A DNA stretch of 63,993 nucleotides, counting the filler. It is 9 parts of 9 records of this genome, joined end to end, with 100 filler letters (N's around TTAATTAATTAA, not from the genome) between each part and the next. Parts side by side here need not be neighbours in the genome. Positions count along the whole stretch, not along the records: positions 5,157 to 13,024 come from SRR31156797_19101; 8 more parts are not named here. One strand, 5' to 3'. Of the stretch, positions 5,057-25,878 are shown in pieces. A program made the translations under genes and the position numbers. How positions within the stretch are numbered: the stretch's first letter is position 1; every line of letters starts with the position of its first letter. The notes under the pieces are model-generated. The model saw nothing but the letters and a program-made list of their open reading frames with translations, was not told the origin of the DNA and searched no databases.

Positions 5057-5156
5057 NNNNNNNNNNNNNNNNNNNNNNNNNNNNNNNNNNNNNNNNNNNN
5101 TTAATTAATTAANNNNNNNNNNNNNNNNNNNNNNNNNNNNNNNNNNNNNNNNNNNN
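5057..5156. other. Artificial contig spacer
   Basis: 44 N + TTAATTAATTAA (stops in all frames) + 44 N. Confidence 0.99.
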
Positions 5157-5157
5157 G

Positions 5158-5973
5158 GGCACGGGATTCATTGCGGAAACCATGGAGCTTCTGTGCAGGT
5201 TTGGATTCGCCCACAAGCTGAAATTCGATGACGGTCACCCTCCCCGGTTCGAGCACCGTCACCTGGGACTTCACCACGATCACATGGTCTGCACCAAGTG
5301 CGGAACCATCATCGAATTCAGGGACGAAGCCCTGGAACGGCAACAGGTGGATCTTGCCGCGGCCTATGGCTTTCACATGCTCCAGCATAAGATGGAGATC
5401 TACGGCATCTGTGGCGACTGCCTGAAAAAGCGGTCCATGGTGATGCCGCTTTCCAGGACAAAGCAGGGAGAGTTTTTGGTTATCAAGGGATTTGAAGGCG
5501 GGAAAAAGGCCCAGATGCGCCTCACCTCCATGGGGCTCAGGGTGGGAGACACCATTGAAGTGGTGTCCACCCAGGCCGGGGGACAGCTTGTCATCGCCCT
5601 TGGCGATAATCGGTTTGTCATGGGACAAGGGCTTGCCCGGAAGGTGAGGGTGGAGCATGTCTGCCACCATCCCCAGGCGGTTTTCCCGGAACCCCGGGAG
5701 TTGAAGACGCTCCGGGAACCCGGAGGAACCATTCCCCTGAGCCAGATGAAGGAGGGCCAGGAGGGTGTCATTGCCCGGGTGGCCGGCGAGCCCCGGTTGC
5801 GCAGGCGGATACTTGAGATGGGCATCAACCGCGGTGCCACCGTCTATGTGGAAAAATATGCGCCCCTGAAGGATCCCATCGAGCTGATCGTCAAGGGGTA
5901 CCACGTCTCCATGCGTGTTGAGGAGGCGGCCCACATCAATGTCGAAGGGGTGAGGACGGTGAACAAACGATGA
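5158..5973 (+). CDS. Fur-family repressor fused to two FeoA domains (5' truncated)
   Basis: Fur C-terminus HHDHMVCTKCG...YGICGDC, then two FeoA repeats (RLTSMGLRVG; RRILEMGINRG...APLKDPI); frame open to the contig edge. Confidence 0.88.
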   Translation, partial: GTGFIAETMELLCRFGFAHKLKFDDGHPPRFEHRHLGLHHDHMVCTKCGTIIEFRDEALERQQVDLAAAYGFHMLQHKMEIYGICGDCLKKRSMVMPLSRTKQGEFLVIKGFEGGKKAQMRLTSMGLRVGDTIEVVSTQAGGQLVIALGDNRFVMGQGLARKVRVEHVCHHPQAVFPEPRELKTLREPGGTIPLSQMKEGQEGVIARVAGEPRLRRRILEMGINRGATVYVEKYAPLKDPIELIVKGYHVSMRVEEAAHINVEGVRTVNKR

Positions 5974-8147
5974 AGCGCCTGACAATCGCCCTGGCGGGGA
6001 ATCCCAACTGCGGCAAGACCACCATTTTCAATAATCTCACCGGCGCCCGGCAGAAGGTCGGCAACTGGCCCGGGGTAACGGTTGAGAAAAAAGAGGGGAC
6101 GATCAAACGGAACGGGTATGAGCTGAATGTGGTGGACCTGCCCGGTACCTACAGTCTTACCCCCTTTTCCATCGAGGAGATAGCGGCCAGGGACTTTATC
6201 CTGAACGAAAAACCCGATGTGGTCGTCAACATCATCGATGCCGCCAACCTGGAGCGGAGCCTCTACCTTGCCATGCAGATCATGGAGCTCGACCGCCCCG
6301 TGGTCTTTGTTCTCAACATGGCCGATCTCGCAAAATCCAAGGGTATCACCATTGACGCTGAAAAGCTGTCAACCTTGTTGAACCTGCCCGTCATCTTTAC
6401 CGTGGGGAACCGGGGCCAGGGCACGGACCTTCTTGTGGAGACGGCCATAAAGGAAGCCCTTGCCGGGCCAAAGGGCAAGGAGGGACGCAGGGTTATCTAT
6501 AACCGGGAGATCGAAGCCCTTATCAAAGAGATCGAGGTCTCCATCGACGAGACCGGCCTGAAACTGGACGCCTGGCCCAGGCGCTGGACGGCCATCAAGC
6601 TACTGGAAGACGACCAGGTGGTGGAGGAGAACCTTGCCGCCATGGAGGAGAGCCGGGTCGACGAGGTCCTGGCCGTGGCCGAACGCTCCCGTTCCCGCAT
6701 GGAGGAGTTTTTCCAGGATGATCCCGATATCGTCCTGACCGACGAGCGTTACGGATTCATTGCCGGGATTGTCAGGGAGGCGGTGACCGTGTCTGCCAGG
6801 AAGCGGGCGGACATCTCCAGGAATATCGACCTGGTTCTGACCAACCGGTTCCTCGGGTTTCCTATTTTCATCTTCTTTATATGGGCCATGTTCCAGCTCA
6901 CGTTCACCCTGGGGACCTACCCCATGGAGTGGATCGATACCGGCGTGACCCTGTTATCGTCTTTTCTTGATTCCCTGCTGCCCCAGGGGATGTTCAAGGA
7001 CCTTCTTTTGAACGGTATTGTCGCGGGTATCGGCAGTGTCATCATTTTTCTGCCCAATATCCTGATCCTGTTTTTCTGCATCGCCCTGTTCGAGGATACC
7101 GGGTACATGGCAAGGACCGCCTTTCTCATGGACCGGATCATGCACACGGTGGGGCTCCACGGCAAATCGTTCATTCCCATGCTCATGGGGTTTGGGTGCA
7201 GTGTGCCCGCCATCATGGCAACCCGGGCCCTCGAGAACCGGAAGGATAGGATCCTGACCATCCTGATCACCCCCTTCATGTCCTGTTCCGCAAGGCTGCC
7301 GGTGTATATCGTCCTGGCCGGGTCCTTTTTTGCCGAACGGGCCGGCACCGTCATCTTCGGCCTCTATGCCACGGGTATTGTCATTGCCATCCTCTCCGGA
7401 AGGCTGTTTCGCTCCACCCTGCTCAAGGGGGAGGACGCCCCCTTTGTCATGGAGCTTCCCCCCTACCGGGTGCCCATGTTCAAGAGCCTTATGATTCACA
7501 TGTGGGACCGCAGCAAGATGTTTCTGAGAAAGATGGGCGGCGTGATCCTGGTGGGGTCCATCATCATCTGGGCACTCTCCACTTTTCCAAGGGATCCCGG
7601 CGTTTCCGACCGCTATGCCGACAATATTGCCAGGGTGACCGGCGAGTATGCCCAGAAGCAGAAGATTGCCGAGGCGGATCCGGCCCTGGAAAAAGAGCTT
7701 GCCGCAGAGGTGGAGGCAAGGGTGGCCGCCCTGGAAAAAGAGAGGGACAAGGCCCTTGTGGAACGCTCCTTTATCGGACGGTTCGGCAGGGTGTTGGAAC
7801 CGGTGTTCGCGCCCGTCGGCATCGATTGGCGTGCCGGTGTGGCCCTGGTGACGGGGCTTGTGGCCAAGGAGGTGGTGGTCTCCAGCATGGGGGTGCTCTA
7901 CGGTGTGGGGGACGACGCGTCCGACGCCCTGAACCATGCCCTTCACCATGCCGGGATGACGCCCCTTTCGGCCCTTTCCATCATGGTGTTCGTGCTTCTT
8001 TATATTCCCTGCATCGCAACGGTTTCAACCATCTGGAAAGAAGCCTCCGGGAAATGGGCCTGGTTTAACCTTTTATATACGACAGCCGTTGCATGGAGTC
8101 TTTCTTTTCTGGTATATCAGGGTGGAAAACTTTTGGGATTCGGATAG
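5970..8147 (+). CDS. feoB: Ferrous iron transporter FeoB
   Basis: G1 GNPNCGKT, GNWPGVTVE, DLPGTYSL, NMAD; Gate and TM regions; LYIPCIAT. Confidence 0.97.
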   Translation: MKRLTIALAGNPNCGKTTIFNNLTGARQKVGNWPGVTVEKKEGTIKRNGYELNVVDLPGTYSLTPFSIEEIAARDFILNEKPDVVVNIIDAANLERSLYLAMQIMELDRPVVFVLNMADLAKSKGITIDAEKLSTLLNLPVIFTVGNRGQGTDLLVETAIKEALAGPKGKEGRRVIYNREIEALIKEIEVSIDETGLKLDAWPRRWTAIKLLEDDQVVEENLAAMEESRVDEVLAVAERSRSRMEEFFQDDPDIVLTDERYGFIAGIVREAVTVSARKRADISRNIDLVLTNRFLGFPIFIFFIWAMFQLTFTLGTYPMEWIDTGVTLLSSFLDSLLPQGMFKDLLLNGIVAGIGSVIIFLPNILILFFCIALFEDTGYMARTAFLMDRIMHTVGLHGKSFIPMLMGFGCSVPAIMATRALENRKDRILTILITPFMSCSARLPVYIVLAGSFFAERAGTVIFGLYATGIVIAILSGRLFRSTLLKGEDAPFVMELPPYRVPMFKSLMIHMWDRSKMFLRKMGGVILVGSIIIWALSTFPRDPGVSDRYADNIARVTGEYAQKQKIAEADPALEKELAAEVEARVAALEKERDKALVERSFIGRFGRVLEPVFAPVGIDWRAGVALVTGLVAKEVVVSSMGVLYGVGDDASDALNHALHHAGMTPLSALSIMVFVLLYIPCIATVSTIWKEASGKWAWFNLLYTTAVAWSLSFLVYQGGKLLGFG

Positions 8148-8165: not shown

Positions 8166-8651
8166 GTGGGTTTAATTTCGAGTTGGAGTAGATATACAAA
8201 GGGGAAGACAGGGGTGGCCCTGTGGTTTCTGGTCAGCTTTCTTTTCATGGCGACCCTGGTTTGCCAGGTTGCCTGGGCGGGAGAGCGCCTTTGCGTCACA
8301 TCCAAGATCGCCAATGTAAGATCCGGTCCCGGCACCGGCAATGAGACCCTTTGGCAGATCGAGACCTTTCATCCCATCATTGTGGTTGAAAAAAAAGGCA
8401 GCTGGTACAGATTTAAAGATTTTGAAGGGGACATGGGCTGGATCCACAAATCCCTGACCGGAAAGGTCCGTTCCGTTATTACGGTCAAGAATAATTGCAA
8501 TGTTCGTTCCGGTCCCGGACCCAAAAACGCCGTTGTTTTTACGGTGGAAAAGGGAGTCCCGTTCAAGGTGCTCAAGAAAAAGGGAAACTGGCTTCAGGTG
8601 GAACATGGTGACGGCGACGGGGGTTGGATTTATAAGACCCTTGTGTGGTAA
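8166..8651 (+). CDS. Secreted tandem bacterial SH3-domain protein
   Basis: Signal peptide plus two repeats ANVRSGPG...GWIH and CNVRSGPG...GWIY; start codon uncertain. Confidence 0.85.
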   Translation: MGLISSWSRYTKGKTGVALWFLVSFLFMATLVCQVAWAGERLCVTSKIANVRSGPGTGNETLWQIETFHPIIVVEKKGSWYRFKDFEGDMGWIHKSLTGKVRSVITVKNNCNVRSGPGPKNAVVFTVEKGVPFKVLKKKGNWLQVEHGDGDGGWIYKTLVW

Positions 8652-8688
8652 GCGTTTACAACTTATAATTATTTAGAGAGAGGAAAAA

Positions 8689-9366
8689 ATGGTCGATAAA
8701 ATATCAAATGCGCGTAAAAAAGAGCTTGAACAGCCGGATCCGTTTCTGGAGGCATTGCAGGGGTATGCGGATGCTTCCCAGAAATACAGGAAACAGATCA
8801 TCTGGGCCTTGTGTGCCGTGGTTGCTGTTGTTTCCATTTTTTCGGGAACGGTTTACAGTATCAAGCGTTCCGAGGAGAAAGCCGCCGGGTTTCTCGCCCA
8901 GACCCTCTCACGATACAACGATGCCGACCCGGTAAAGGGGTATGAAACGGTGAAGGATGATGTTGTCGAGTTCCTCGAGTCCTATCCCAACACGGTTGCA
9001 GCCACCCAGGCCAGGGTCCGGTTTGCCGAGATCGCATTCAAGGCGTCGAAATATGAGGAAGCCCATCGGATGTACCTTGCCGCCCTGGACGATTTCAAGG
9101 GGGACGCCTCCATGGAAAATCTCCTGCTGGCCGCCCTGGGACGCACCTGTCAGGCCCTGGAGCGCCATGATGAGGCGGAAACCTGGTTCAGGAAAATCTC
9201 CGGTGGCAAGAGTCCCCTCCTGAAGGGGGAGGCCCTGTTCAACCTGGGCGTGCTTCTGGCCGACAAGGGGGACACGGCCGAAAGCCAGAAGCTGTTCAAA
9301 ACCCTTGTTTCCGATCATGAAGGGTCCTTCTACAAGCCCATGGTGGAAGCCCGGCTCAACGATTGA
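8689..9366 (+). CDS. Membrane-anchored TPR protein (YfgM-like)
   Basis: One N-terminal TM helix followed by TPR-like helical repeats. Confidence 0.75.
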   Translation: MVDKISNARKKELEQPDPFLEALQGYADASQKYRKQIIWALCAVVAVVSIFSGTVYSIKRSEEKAAGFLAQTLSRYNDADPVKGYETVKDDVVEFLESYPNTVAATQARVRFAEIAFKASKYEEAHRMYLAALDDFKGDASMENLLLAALGRTCQALERHDEAETWFRKISGGKSPLLKGEALFNLGVLLADKGDTAESQKLFKTLVSDHEGSFYKPMVEARLND

Positions 9367-9390
9367 TCCTCTGACAACGTGTTGTTAAAA

Positions 9391-9433
9391 CTTAAAAAGG
9401 CTGCCTGAAATTGTTTCAGGCAGCCTTTTTAAG
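9391..9433. terminator. Bidirectional rho-independent terminator
   Basis: Perfect 20-bp inverted repeat CTTAAAAAGGCTGCCTGAAA-ttg-TTTCAGGCAGCCTTTTTAAG with a U-tract on either strand. Confidence 0.9.
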
Positions 9434-9475
9434 AAAAGGAGAAAAAAGATGAATAGCTAAACTCGTTTAGCATGA
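9392..9475 (-). ncRNA. Candidate sigma-54-dependent small RNA (~85 nt) with CU-rich anti-RBS seed
   Basis: Lies between a -24/-12 promoter and the terminator; 5' hairpin GCUAAA-CGAG-UUUAGC, single-stranded UAUUCAUCUUUUUUCUCCUUUUCU, then terminator. Confidence 0.65.
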
Positions 9476-9485
9476 AAATTATTAA

Positions 9486-9501
9486 TGCAAAGAGCTTGCC
9501 A
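9486..9501 (-). promoter_or_regulatory. Sigma-54 (-24/-12) promoter
   Basis: Minus strand TGGCAAGCTCTTTGCA, exact GG-N10-GC spacing. Confidence 0.8.
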
Positions 9502-9630
9502 ACTTTAAAATCTTACCCTTCCTATTTTTTTGTTCCGGTCAAAAGCCCTGTTGTTACAGGCTTTGTCTTCCCTATTTAAATTGTTATCTGTTTTTGAGCC
9601 TGGTATTGCCATGGCGGCATGTCAACAAAA

Positions 9631-9812
9631 GTTCAAAATTTTGAACCGGTGCAGAGCGTTTTTTGTCACTCTGTGTCTCCAATGGTTGACAATTCGGGGA
9701 TGTTGAAAGGGGTGCCCCGGGGTTCAAAAAAATGAATTTCTCCATGGGCCCGGGAACCGCAGATGATTACAGCCCGGTTTTTCAACCCTGGTGCCTGTTC
9801 ACAATTTTGAAC
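9631..9812. promoter_or_regulatory. Three palindromic candidate enhancer (UAS) sites GTTCA-N6-TGAA(C/T)
   Basis: GTTCAAAATTTTGAAC 9631-9646, GTTCAAAAAAATGAAT 9722-9737, GTTCACAATTTTGAAC 9797-9812; also TGTC-N10-GACA at 9674-9691. Confidence 0.6.
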
Positions 9813-9815
9813 TTT

Positions 9816-11180
9816 TTACAATTTGTATTTTTTGAGTTTCTGGTTCAGGCCGCTTTTGCCGATGCCCAAGAGTTTGGCCGCCCGGGTCTGGACATTGCCG
9901 GTGAGCATCATGGCCCGCTGGATCATTCGTTTCTCAACGGCGGCAAGGGTTTCGGACAGGCCTGCATTTTCGGGAATGCCGTCCAGCTGAAGCGGGGCTG
10001 AAATGGTTTGCCGCATCTTCAGGGGAAGGTCGGCCGGGGTGATGCGGTCGCTTGACGAGAGGATCACGGCCCGCTCGATGGTATTTTCAAGCTCCCTCAC
10101 ATTTCCGGGCCAGGCGTGGTCGAAAAAGAGCTGTGCCGCCTCCTGGCTCACCCCGGAAACGGGTTCCGCAGCTTTGCGTTCATTGGAGTATTTTTCGATA
10201 AAGTGGTTGATCAGCAGGGGAATGTCCTCCTGGCGGTCCCGGAGGGGCGGGATCACGGCCTTGACCACATTGAGCCGGTAGTAGAGATCTTCCCGGAAGT
10301 TGCCCTTTTCCACCTCCTGCTCAAGGTTTTTATTGGTTGCCGCGATCAGGCGGAAGTCCACGGTAAGCGGGGTGGTGCCCCCGACCCGCTCAAAGGTTTT
10401 CTCCTGGATCACCCTCAATAATTTCACCTGGAGGCTCATGGGAAGCTCCCCTATCTCGTCGAGAAACAGGGTGCCCTGGTGGGCTGTCTCAAACCGTCCC
10501 TTTCGCGTGGCTACTGCTCCTGTAAAAGAGCCTTTTTCATGGCCGAACAGCTCGCTCTCAAGCATGGATTCGGCAAAGGCCGAACAGTTGACGGCCACCA
10601 GGGGCTTGGCTTTTCTGGGACTGTTAAAGTGGATGGATCGCGCCACCAGCTCTTTTCCGGTTCCGCTCTCTCCCTCGATCAGGATGCTGGCGTTGGTGGG
10701 GGCTACCTTTTTTATGGTCTCATAGAGCTCCTGCATGGGTTTGCTCTTTCCGATGATGTTGCCAAAGTTGTAGGCCGCGCTCACGGCGTCCCGCAGCATG
10801 GTGTTCTCCTGCACGATTCCCTGGATCGAGATCGCCTTTGAAATGTGGGCCACCAGGGTTTCGTTTTCAAAGGGCTTGAGAATATAGGTGTAGGCGCCCT
10901 TGTGCATGGCCTCCACCGCCTTTTCAACGCTTCCGTAGGCGGTCATGACGATGACGGGCATGTCCGGAGTGATCTCCTTGATTTTTTTCATCAGTTCGAT
11001 CCCGTCCATTCCCGGCATGTTCACGTCGGTGAGCACAAGGTCAATGTGCTGCTCATTGAGAATGTCCAGGGCCATGAGGCTGCTTGATGCCGTGACCGGT
11101 GAAAACCCCTCTTCCTTGAGGACTTCTCCCAGGATGGTGGGATAGTTTTTTTCATCGTCAACGATCAGGATCTTTTCCAT
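9816..11180 (-). CDS. NtrC-family sigma-54 response regulator (REC-AAA+-HTH)
   Basis: REC (VDDE, TDVNMP), GESGTGKE, GSFTGA variant of GAFTGA, LFLDEIGE, WPGNVRELEN, Fis-type HTH. Confidence 0.96.
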   Translation of the reverse strand: MEKILIVDDEKNYPTILGEVLKEEGFSPVTASSSLMALDILNEQHIDLVLTDVNMPGMDGIELMKKIKEITPDMPVIVMTAYGSVEKAVEAMHKGAYTYILKPFENETLVAHISKAISIQGIVQENTMLRDAVSAAYNFGNIIGKSKPMQELYETIKKVAPTNASILIEGESGTGKELVARSIHFNSPRKAKPLVAVNCSAFAESMLESELFGHEKGSFTGAVATRKGRFETAHQGTLFLDEIGELPMSLQVKLLRVIQEKTFERVGGTTPLTVDFRLIAATNKNLEQEVEKGNFREDLYYRLNVVKAVIPPLRDRQEDIPLLINHFIEKYSNERKAAEPVSGVSQEAAQLFFDHAWPGNVRELENTIERAVILSSSDRITPADLPLKMRQTISAPLQLDGIPENAGLSETLAAVEKRMIQRAMMLTGNVQTRAAKLLGIGKSGLNQKLKKYKL

Positions 11181-11184
11181 ATTG

Positions 11185-12600
11185 TTAACTCTCCTTTGCC
11201 GGCAGGATGATCTCCACCTGAACGCCGGTTGATTCCCTGTTTGAAAGCTCTATTTCACCGCCGTGGGACTCGATGATGTTTTTGACGATGCCAAGTCCCA
11301 GGCCCGTACCCATCTCTTTTGTGGTGAAAAAGGGGTTCCATATCTTCTTTAATTCCTCTTCGCCAATGCCTCTTCCCTGGTCTTCAAACAGGATGACCAC
11401 CTCGGTGTCGTCATAGAACAGGCTGATGATGATCCTGCCTTCATCGTCCATGGCCTGGAAGGAGTTGAGCAGGATGTTCAGAAACGCCTGGTAGAGCATG
11501 GAACTGTCGGCCAGGATTTCCGGGATGTTGTCGCTGAAGCGTTTCTCGATCTCAATCCCCTTTTCAAGGAGCTTTGGTTCCAGAAAGGAGATGTTTTTTT
11601 CGATGATGTTCTCGATTTTGCAGGGCCTCAGATCAGGCTTCATGGGGCGGGCAAAATCCAGGAAATCCTTGATGATGTTGTTGAGCCGGACAGACTCTTC
11701 AACGATGATATCGGGAATGGTGGTGGCGGTGTCGAGCTTTGCCATCTTTTTTTTCAACAGCTCGGCTGAGCTCTTGATGATTCCCAGGGGATTCCGGATC
11801 TCATGGGAGACCCCGGCCGTCATTTCCCCGATGGCGGAGAGATGTTCGGCTCGCCTGAGCTTCTCTTCCAGTTTCAGCTGCTCCTGGTTCCGCCGCTCGA
11901 TAATGTTCTCTCCCTGTTTGACCACAAATATGAGAACGATAAAGAGGGTGCCCATGACGATGCAGCAGGTGACCGTCACCATCACCTGGAGCCTGAAAAT
12001 TTTATGATAATCGCCGGAAACATCCTGGACGATCTCCACGACCCCGAGTACCGGGCCCGAGATGGAGGAGAGGGGCTTTTCCGCCCGAAGGGGGGCAAAG
12101 GTGACAATCTTGGTATGCCTGGGCACCCCTAAAAACAGCTCCAGGGAGGAGCCCTTTTGCACCAGGCGGGAGGTTGATTCGCTTTTTACGGCGTTTGCGT
12201 AGCCTGAACCGCCGGCATTTTTTGTGCCGATCCGGCTCTTGTCATAGCTGTAGGAGATGATGTTGTTCATGTCGTAGATGTTGACCGTTTCCACGTTAAA
12301 GCTGTGGAGGGTGGTCTTGACCACCCGGTCCATCCGTTTGAACTGGGCTTCTTCCCTCAGTTTGATCTGGCCGTATTTCAACACGACCGGGATGATAAAC
12401 TGGAGAAAGACCTGGTGGTTGAGATTCTCCACAAGAAGGTGGGCGTACTCTTCGCTCTTCTGCTGGAGGATGCTTCTAACCCAGTGGGTGTTGATGGCCG
12501 AGATGATGATGGTCGCGGCAAACATGACAACAAGGCTCGTAAAGGTAAAATATTTGACCAGCCTGAAAGGCCGTTTCTCCTTTATATCCTGCTGTTTCAT
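11185..12600 (-). CDS. Membrane sensor histidine kinase
   Basis: Two TM helices, H-box SHEIRNPL, N-box NILLNS, FEDQGRG, FFTTKEMGTGLGL. Confidence 0.95.
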   Translation of the reverse strand: MKQQDIKEKRPFRLVKYFTFTSLVVMFAATIIISAINTHWVRSILQQKSEEYAHLLVENLNHQVFLQFIIPVVLKYGQIKLREEAQFKRMDRVVKTTLHSFNVETVNIYDMNNIISYSYDKSRIGTKNAGGSGYANAVKSESTSRLVQKGSSLELFLGVPRHTKIVTFAPLRAEKPLSSISGPVLGVVEIVQDVSGDYHKIFRLQVMVTVTCCIVMGTLFIVLIFVVKQGENIIERRNQEQLKLEEKLRRAEHLSAIGEMTAGVSHEIRNPLGIIKSSAELLKKKMAKLDTATTIPDIIVEESVRLNNIIKDFLDFARPMKPDLRPCKIENIIEKNISFLEPKLLEKGIEIEKRFSDNIPEILADSSMLYQAFLNILLNSFQAMDDEGRIIISLFYDDTEVVILFEDQGRGIGEEELKKIWNPFFTTKEMGTGLGLGIVKNIIESHGGEIELSNRESTGVQVEIILPAKES

Positions 12601-12853: not shown

Positions 12854-13024
12854 ATGCTTTTTCGAAAACGCGATCATCTTGTGGGACTGGACATTGGCTC
12901 TTCCTTGATAAAGGTTGCCGAGATCAAGGAGACCGCCAAGGGGCCTGCGCTGAAAAAGTTCGGCATAGCAAAGATTGCCCCGGGGGCCATCGTGGATGGA
13001 AATATCCAGGATGTCGAGGGGATT
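12854..13024 (+). CDS. pilM: Type IV pilus assembly protein PilM (N-terminus, truncated)
   Basis: MLFRKRDHLVGLDIGSSLIKVAEI...GAIVDGNI, typical of the PilM N-terminus. Confidence 0.85.
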
Positions 13025-13124
13025 NNNNNNNNNNNNNNNNNNNNNNNNNNNNNNNNNNNNNNNNNNNNTTAATTAATTAANNNNNNNNNNNNNNNNNNNN
13101 NNNNNNNNNNNNNNNNNNNNNNNN
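13025..13124. other. Artificial contig spacer
   Basis: N-run with TTAATTAATTAA. Confidence 0.99.
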
Positions 13125-23109: not shown

Positions 23110-23125
23110 AGCAAGGCCTGTGCCA
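23110..23125 (-). promoter_or_regulatory. Sigma-54 promoter of the orp-like operon
   Basis: Minus strand TGGCACAGGCCTTGCT (GG-N10-GC). Confidence 0.85.
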
Positions 23126-24754: not shown

Positions 24755-24770
24755 TGGCATAATCTTTGCT
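24755..24770 (+). promoter_or_regulatory. Sigma-54 promoter of mrp
   Basis: TGGCATAATCTTTGCT, 47 nt upstream of ATG 24818. Confidence 0.82.
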
Positions 24771-25862: not shown

Positions 25863-25878
25863 TGGCACAATGTTTGCT
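25863..25878 (+). promoter_or_regulatory. Sigma-54 promoter of the kinase-hdrA unit
   Basis: TGGCACAATGTTTGCT (GG-N10-GC); palindrome GTTGCAATTTTGCAAAC at 25762-25778 upstream. Confidence 0.82.

Follow-up and report, generated by a model that had tools for sequence, protein, structure and literature searches.

Results

Organisation of the locus

The window (the whole stretch of DNA analysed, 63,993 nt long) carries on its minus strand a two-component gene pair followed by an intergenic region in which a short non-coding transcription unit is predicted. The first gene of the pair encodes a sensor histidine kinase of 471 amino acids (11185..12600), with two predicted membrane helices flanking an extracytoplasmic alpha/beta sensor domain, which is followed by HisKA and HATPase; the second encodes a sigma-54 activator of 454 amino acids (9816..11180) made of REC, an AAA+ domain with GSFTGA and a Fis-type HTH, which is probably a homologue of DVU3220 of D. 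vulgaris. Behind the activator lie three palindromes, all of them putative activator sites: a distal one (9797..9812, perfect GTTCA-N6-TGAAC, about -311 from the -24 element), a middle one (9722..9737, one mismatch, about -236) and a proximal one (9631..9646, perfect, about -145). They are followed on the minus strand by a weak IHF-like site (9574..9586, two mismatches to the consensus), an exact match to the sigma-54 -24/-12 promoter motif (9486..9501) and, judging from fold and conservation, a predicted sRNA of about 82 nt (9394..9475). The latter would consist of a 5′ hairpin (9456..9471; present in one clade and missing from the others), a 26-nt seed (9428..9453) complementary to the Shine-Dalgarno sequence (SD), spacer and AUG of a porin mRNA, and a symmetric intrinsic terminator of 20 bp (9391..9433, from folding), the foot of whose stem is overlapped by the 3′ end of the seed. 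The terminator is probably shared with a convergent gene for a TPR protein (8689..9366, plus strand, with a YfgM-like TPR_21 match), a neighbour that stands outside the sRNA unit.

Among the best 80 of 578 related loci the closest relative of this locus is from a Desulfobacterium sp. (L001), whose kinase is 95% identical. The start of pilM in the window (12854-13124) matches the same relative at 88% up to 13024, where a gap of N's begins (13025-13124); beyond the gap come ABC-transporter genes, as against pilMNOPQ in the relative, and the scaffold may be misjoined there. Elsewhere in the window (5182-8147) a Fur-like domain is fused to two FeoA domains and followed by feoB.

Promoter and upstream palindromes

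A reading of this DNA from the sequence alone had described the three palindromes, the promoter and a predicted transcription start near 9475, all of which were recovered. With up to one mismatch the palindrome occurs five times in the 64-kb window against 1.86 expected, and three of these five cluster upstream of the sRNA; the promoter is one of four exact matches in the window against 0.19 expected. The other three promoter matches are at 23110-23125 (minus), 24755-24770 (plus) and 25863-25878 (plus). Since the C of the -12 element is at 9487, transcription is predicted to start at about 9475, in agreement with the earlier reading.

The promoter is invariant in an alignment of 28 homologous units, the rows of which were picked by the promoter motif, and it is also present in covariance-model matches outside the training set. 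Of 29 promoter-bearing loci, 25 have palindromes with up to one mismatch on their upstream side, as compared with four of 41 others, two of which four carry the RNA; the positions kept among homologues are near -300, from -213 to -237 and from -131 to -167. The genome closest to the window (G001) has only two perfect copies of the 16-mer, each preceding an sRNA gene; two further single palindromes in this genome and four in another (G002) have no sigma-54 promoter within 500 nt. An IHF-like site (up to one mismatch to the consensus) is found in 16 of the 29 homologous promoter regions, as compared with 20% of shuffles. A conserved -24/-12 element directly before the RNA, together with conserved putative activator sites upstream, is what the sequence of a sigma-54- and enhancer-dependent sRNA, the kind represented by Qrr, GlmY, Pxr and Dv_sRNA2, should look like. 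In three loci with distant activators (L092, L100 and L102) the HTH is different and the site reads GTACA-N6-TGTAC, a possible case of protein-DNA co-variation.

RNA structure

The 5′ hairpin (9471-9456), unpaired tract and 20-bp terminator (9433-9391) of the earlier reading are all present in the folded RNA, whose predicted fold has a z of -8.15 and whose seed is 99% unpaired over 18 nt. Across the 28 sequences, 10 of 12 terminator pairs change on both sides and 91.8% of cells are paired; given that terminators covary in any case, this marks a kept structure and nothing special. The seed, unlike the terminator stem, is nearly invariant in the same alignment. The 5′ hairpin has six pairs (69-86% of cells paired, three pairs changed on both sides), and in homologues the open seed is flanked by one or two hairpins. 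As the sequence-only reading had supposed, no described family was matched: the best Rfam 15 match in window positions 8500-10800 scores 29.5 bits against a gathering cut-off of 76, the weak matches fall on the terminator, and seven homologous or target loci gave no Rfam match. Nor did we find a description of this RNA family in the open-access literature, to which the search was confined. One RNA run, in which 4% of words were present, gave contigs that cover the TPR gene and the activator of relatives in part and leave 9393-9819 uncovered; it is uninformative either way.

Conservation at kinase loci and elsewhere

Of 578 related loci reached with an alignment of the kinase, the best 80 were taken, most of them from Desulfobacterales; 70 sequences (the window included) have a complete activator, and 29 of these contain the unit by a strict promoter pattern. 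A covariance model that includes the promoter finds the unit, at E < 0.001, at 33 of the 80 kinase loci (27 training rows and six outside the training set). Promoter, palindromes, seed and terminator are thus kept together next to orthologous activators, as the earlier reading had proposed that they should be. Where no RNA was seen beside the kinase, the unit was found elsewhere in 31 of 37 genomes (2 of 2 and 29 of 35), a few of the matches being weak; five of these 37 kinase loci are cut short or have no activator, and ten further genomes were outside the search. Palindromes near -146, -224 or -299 accompany 29 of the 30 relocated matches inspected, the surrounding genes vary, and the cassette is often away from the TPR gene. 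It is also found duplicated: two sRNA copies are present in each of three genomes (G001, G003 and G005), and in seven of 12 genomes of one clade, two of which were already counted or have copies at contig ends. In L031 (8019-8424) promoter and RNA stand as two tandem copies behind a single activator.

Of 151 sampled genomes of the phylum, 19 have a match to the model and 46 have the kinase, which is present in 14 of the 19 matched genomes against 32 of the 132 others; the remaining five of the 19 have no promoter or no typical seed. Weak matches in four genomes (G049, G050, G135 and G148) were treated as due to chance, the promoter being absent; the match in G133 has the promoter and a different seed, and palindromes are absent at L264. 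Among 20 distant kinase regions the activator adjoins in 13, and four of these 13 have promoter, pyrimidine tract and hairpin right behind it. Conservation, relocation and recurring adjacency together argue for a trans-acting RNA under the adjacent activator. The proposal of the sequence-only reading, a trans-acting sRNA directed against ribosome-binding sites and controlled by the neighbouring kinase and activator, hence draws support from comparative data, the elements being kept and relocating as one cassette. In a genome without the kinase (L096:1501-1613, minus), a C/U-rich RNA-like unit with a sigma-54 promoter converges on a different activator and possibly belongs to another sRNA family.

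Kinase and activator

The sensor region of the kinase (model pLDDT 79.7) has one match per genome in 46 of the 151 genomes of the phylum; Pfam and fold searches named only the kinase core and placed the sensor domain in no named family. The activator is 47% identical to a 459-aa GSFTGA activator of L375, and both Desulfovibrio-like genomes concerned (L375/L376) have the homologous pair behind pgi. The row pgi-kinase-activator of L375 is like that of DVU3222-3221-3220 in D. vulgaris, where DVU3222 is glucose-6-phosphate isomerase (PMC10920352) and DVU3220 a protein of 459 aa with DVU3221 as its kinase (PMC3333781, supplement), listed with GSFTGA and with no motif (PMC4641369). Because the pgi order, the 459-aa length and GSFTGA are shared via L375/L376, kinase and activator would be homologous to DVU3221/DVU3220. 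The D. vulgaris pair was speculated to regulate nitrogen metabolism, with a gel shift at DVU1231 and neither a motif nor DAP-chip data (PMC3333781, PMC4641369).

The DNA-binding domain of L375 matches the row labelled DVU3305 in supplementary file 2 of PMC4641369 (40 of 42 positions by eye) and not that labelled DVU3220; DVU3305 being listed as GAFSGA, we suspect that the two rows are swapped. DVU3305 was dropped as the homologue in favour of DVU3220 on gene order, length and GSFTGA, and DVU0653 and DVU0679 were rejected as orthologues on binding motifs and DNA-binding domains, which differ by eye. Neither the sRNA nor an excess of palindromes was found in the two Desulfovibrio-like genomes with DVU3220-like homologues, so the RNA output may be lineage-specific. 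In two genomes (L429 and L430, from G140 and G078) a shared palindrome lies in the first codons of a glutamine synthetase-like ORF behind amtB- and glnB-like genes (by eye), a curious finding beside the gel shift at DVU1231 that is probably due to codon conservation. In L140 and L365 the activator after the kinase ends in an unrelated C-terminal domain and has no Fis-type HTH.

The predicted target

A 397-aa porin gene was found when G001 and G002 were searched with a degenerate form of the seed complement. The seed of the window is the perfect 26-nt complement of the porin start of G001 (L147:1670-1695), which is the closest genome and not the window's own; with the two RNA copies of G001 itself there is one mismatch and a co-folding gain of -28 to -33 kcal/mol, and apart from the two sRNA genes this start is the sole perfect seed match in that genome. 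The 'idealised' translation start, to which the earlier reading had found the tract complementary, therefore exists as the real start of porin genes, which supports the link to envelope genes suggested at the same time. The companion suggestion of a link to pilM fared worse: the best start among 68 ORFs of the window (a set that excludes its truncated pilM) reaches -21.6 kcal/mol against -28.6 for the porin; pilMNOPQ are conserved neighbours in 69 of 72 loci.

The encoded protein scores 93.7 bits against DESULF_POR1 (NF033939), for which 250 bits is the curated cut-off, and its model is a beta-barrel resembling AlgE and Campylobacter MOMP (pLDDT 73, TM about 0.6), which points to a distant relative of DESULF_POR1 and not to a filed member. 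Two porin-like genes, 3.4 kb apart in G001 (L147:1691-2884 and 5136-6776), both have starts that pair with the seed. An exact scan of metagenomes for the 26-mer gave two matches, both of them further sRNA copies, and no porin start. Taken with the co-variation described below, mRNAs of 18-stranded outer-membrane porins are a well-supported prediction for the target.

Hfq (PF17209) was found in none of five genomes of unstated completeness (control: 5 of 14), ProQ likewise in none of five, and RNase III in all of five. We infer that the long duplex could stand in for a chaperone.

Co-variation of seed and porin start

Porins were sought in the 42 RNA-bearing genomes with family and alignment queries, which found more than a single porin query (eight of 42 genomes only), and half of these genomes yielded one. 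In this first set of 21 (no porin was found in the other 21), each seed was paired with its genome's own best porin: the mean cognate duplex is -30.6 kcal/mol against -23.2±1.0 for permuted pairs, and none of 20000 permutations was as good. Ten of the 21 cognate pairs rank first, five have unbroken Watson-Crick runs of 23-27 nt, and for the 12 seeds tested between zero and two of 773 background starts (spurious ORFs included) pair as well. A second set comprised 22 further genomes (40 searched, 27 with and 13 without a porin match, 22 used), two of which (G186 and G198) were first found by the seed pattern; the cognate mean is -33.8 against -29.3±0.9 kcal/mol, again with 0 of 20000 permutations as good, the porin windows being 3 nt longer than the background and the seed of G177 cut short. 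In 14 of these genomes no background start pairs as well, only two of 22 rank first, and the 5′ part of the RNA pairs with porin codons 1-6 (Met-Lys-Lys-Leu-Leu). As the genomes are related, the permutation counts of both sets are not to be read as probabilities.

Rare variants of the seed are mirrored in the porin start: G173 and G077 have one G more, G175 has lost the C that adjoins CAU, and G041 has a CG. G077 and G204 each contain exactly two copies of a variant 26-mer, one in the sRNA and one at the porin start, and three other genomes have no match to it with up to three mismatches. This shows uniqueness and is not a blind test, since the pattern was taken from G077 and G204. Some genomes fit poorly: G182 (rank 16 of 21) and G163 (rank 8) in the first set, and in the second G194 (rank 22 of 22, with a doubtful start codon) as well as G183 and G219 (both rank 16). 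The fit of G217 is poor too.

Of 33 seed matches in 12 genomes of one clade, the 30 that were inspected prove to be 19 sRNA copies and 11 ORFs. All 11 have, by eye, a signal-peptide-like beginning, eight are porin-like, and the three perfect coding matches are all porins. In a second clade porins make up only two of the eight seed matches outside sRNA genes.

Discussion

The unit is conserved, is built as a cassette and carries a seed whose complementarity to porin starts follows the lineage, the beta-barrel fold of the target coming from a model. This is a real, conserved sRNA family of which we found no description, although the type of circuit is itself known, the covering of a ribosome-binding site by an sRNA being a textbook principle. 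As the exposed stretch mirrors the translation starts of porins, the sRNA probably turns porin production down. The membrane kinase would sense an extracytoplasmic signal and phosphorylate the adjacent NtrC-type activator, which would bind two or three GTTCA-N6-TGAAC sites and open the sigma-54 promoter. The pyrimidine seed of the resulting 82-nt RNA would then pair over 20-30 nt with the SD, spacer, AUG and first codons of the porin mRNA, blocking ribosome entry and probably creating a substrate for RNase III, without Hfq or ProQ. Firing of the kinase would in this way lead to less porin, and the mRNAs of a few other exported proteins may be minor targets. A chain running from two-component pair over sigma-54-dependent sRNA to repression of porin mRNA, of which transcription, activator binding, repression, the part of RNase III and the signal are what we infer, is the likely explanation of the data as a whole and the best that we can offer.

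The same sRNA and activator might instead serve as a broad repressor of mRNAs for exported proteins that share a strong SD and Met-Lys-Lys, porins being simply the members that match best. The signal-peptide-like beginning of all 11 coding matches speaks for it, as do the three non-porins among them (a solute-binding protein, a weak PEP-CTERM match and a 124-aa protein) and the matches of the second clade to an OmpA-family protein, a DUF4136 protein and a Ni-superoxide dismutase within one or two mismatches. Perfect matches and lineage-specific seed changes nevertheless follow the porins, and non-porin matches do not recur between genomes at the inspected loci, which makes so broad a role unlikely.

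We give a lower probability still to an sRNA that does pair with porin mRNA and owes its transcription to another enhancer-binding protein, or whose effect on its target is to stabilise or tune it instead of repressing it. A different driver would fit the many genomes in which the cassette is far from the kinase-activator pair, the absence of palindromes from three of 29 loci and from some distant matches, and the DVU3220-like homologues of the two Desulfovibrio-like genomes, which come without such an RNA or palindrome excess; it sits badly with the adjacency to the activator that recurs in distant lineages (four of 13 distant loci with an activator) and with the GTACA-N6-TGTAC variant appearing where the HTH of the activator differs. 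Tuning is countered by the pairing, which covers both SD and AUG, and known sRNAs that pair over these elements block initiation.

That the region does no more than terminate the TPR gene and the activator operon from both sides, its promoter-like motif being due to chance and no functional RNA being made, is suggested by the symmetry of the terminator and its place between convergent genes, and is very improbable when promoter, palindromes and seed are kept while spacers and stems change, and when the cassette duplicates and moves to unrelated gene contexts. It is hardly credible that the conserved element is the SD and AUG of a small peptide gene on the plus strand, which does read SD, spacer and ATG at 9434-9452, for the frame is 3 aa long in the window and 3-31 aa of unrelated sequence in homologues, starts right behind the terminator and has the promoter pointing the other way.

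Repression of porin synthesis by an sRNA has several precedents. With FoxI/FoxJ of Fusobacterium nucleatum the RNA shares a C/U-rich seed, an abundant porin mRNA as its (here predicted) target and a host without Hfq or ProQ; those RNAs, however, are sigma-E-dependent, while here a sigma-54 promoter with putative activator sites stands behind a two-component pair and the seed is 20-30 nt long, covering SD to codon 5-6 (compared with PMC11005410). In layout it is closer to Dv_sRNA2 (behind DVU0679) and the ncRNA behind DVU0653 of D. vulgaris, likewise ncRNA genes of a sulfate reducer directly downstream of a sigma-54 response regulator, from which it is set apart by binding motifs and DNA-binding domains (PMC3333781, PMC4641369). 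The likeness to DVU3221/DVU3220 lies in the kinase and activator, their homology being deduced via L375/L376, and in the order pgi-kinase-activator (PMC3333781, PMC4641369). Pxr of Myxococcus xanthus, behind nla19 (Mxan_1078), is also an sRNA that has a sigma-54 promoter to itself, lies downstream of a sigma-54 response regulator and has paralogous copies in some genera, but is described as a 108-nt RNA with three stem-loops that controls development (PMC5568312, PMC11928866). The Rfam matches, taken up to E = 10, did not include Pxr.

OmrA and OmrB have short and imperfect seeds. Like the present RNA as proposed, they lower the synthesis of outer-membrane proteins, are linked to a two-component system and occur in twin copies; unlike it they depend on Hfq and are tied to EnvZ/OmpR and RpoS (PMC12692685). 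MicF and MicC are likewise sRNAs that lower outer-membrane protein synthesis. Of the traits of porin-repressing sRNAs of the MicF, OmrA/B and FoxI type, the one found here is a seed that stays single-stranded and is complementary to the translation start of the porin. Sequence, motif or sigma factor sets the RNA apart from each of the systems compared: it would resemble FoxI/FoxJ and OmrA/B in its working and Pxr and Dv_sRNA2 in its layout, and appears to belong to none.

It is tempting to speculate further that a porin start, copied in inverted orientation, gave rise to the RNA, which would have kept its register with that start through much of the phylum, forming near-perfect duplexes of up to 28 bp free of Hfq and ProQ, within a mobile and duplicating enhancer-promoter-RNA cassette that became the dedicated output of a DVU3221/DVU3220-type system in these lineages. 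This is a tentative idea that we would rather doubt than defend; if true, it would provide the first motif and output for such a system, and a trans-encoded RNA behaving like a cis-antisense RNA.

Desulfobacterales are major sulfate reducers of sediments and, to our knowledge, little is known about RNA regulation in them. The present analysis adds an sRNA family that is widespread, has a promoter and a candidate activator motif, and comes with a specific predicted target. For homologues of DVU3220, which in two Desulfovibrio surveys is the most conserved regulator and still has no motif, it offers a candidate motif and output. The variants of seed and target, being natural compensatory pairs, lend themselves to the study of sRNA-target co-evolution. 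It also suggests that porin control by sRNA, known in enterobacteria and Fusobacterium, was reached again by way of sigma-54 and without Hfq.
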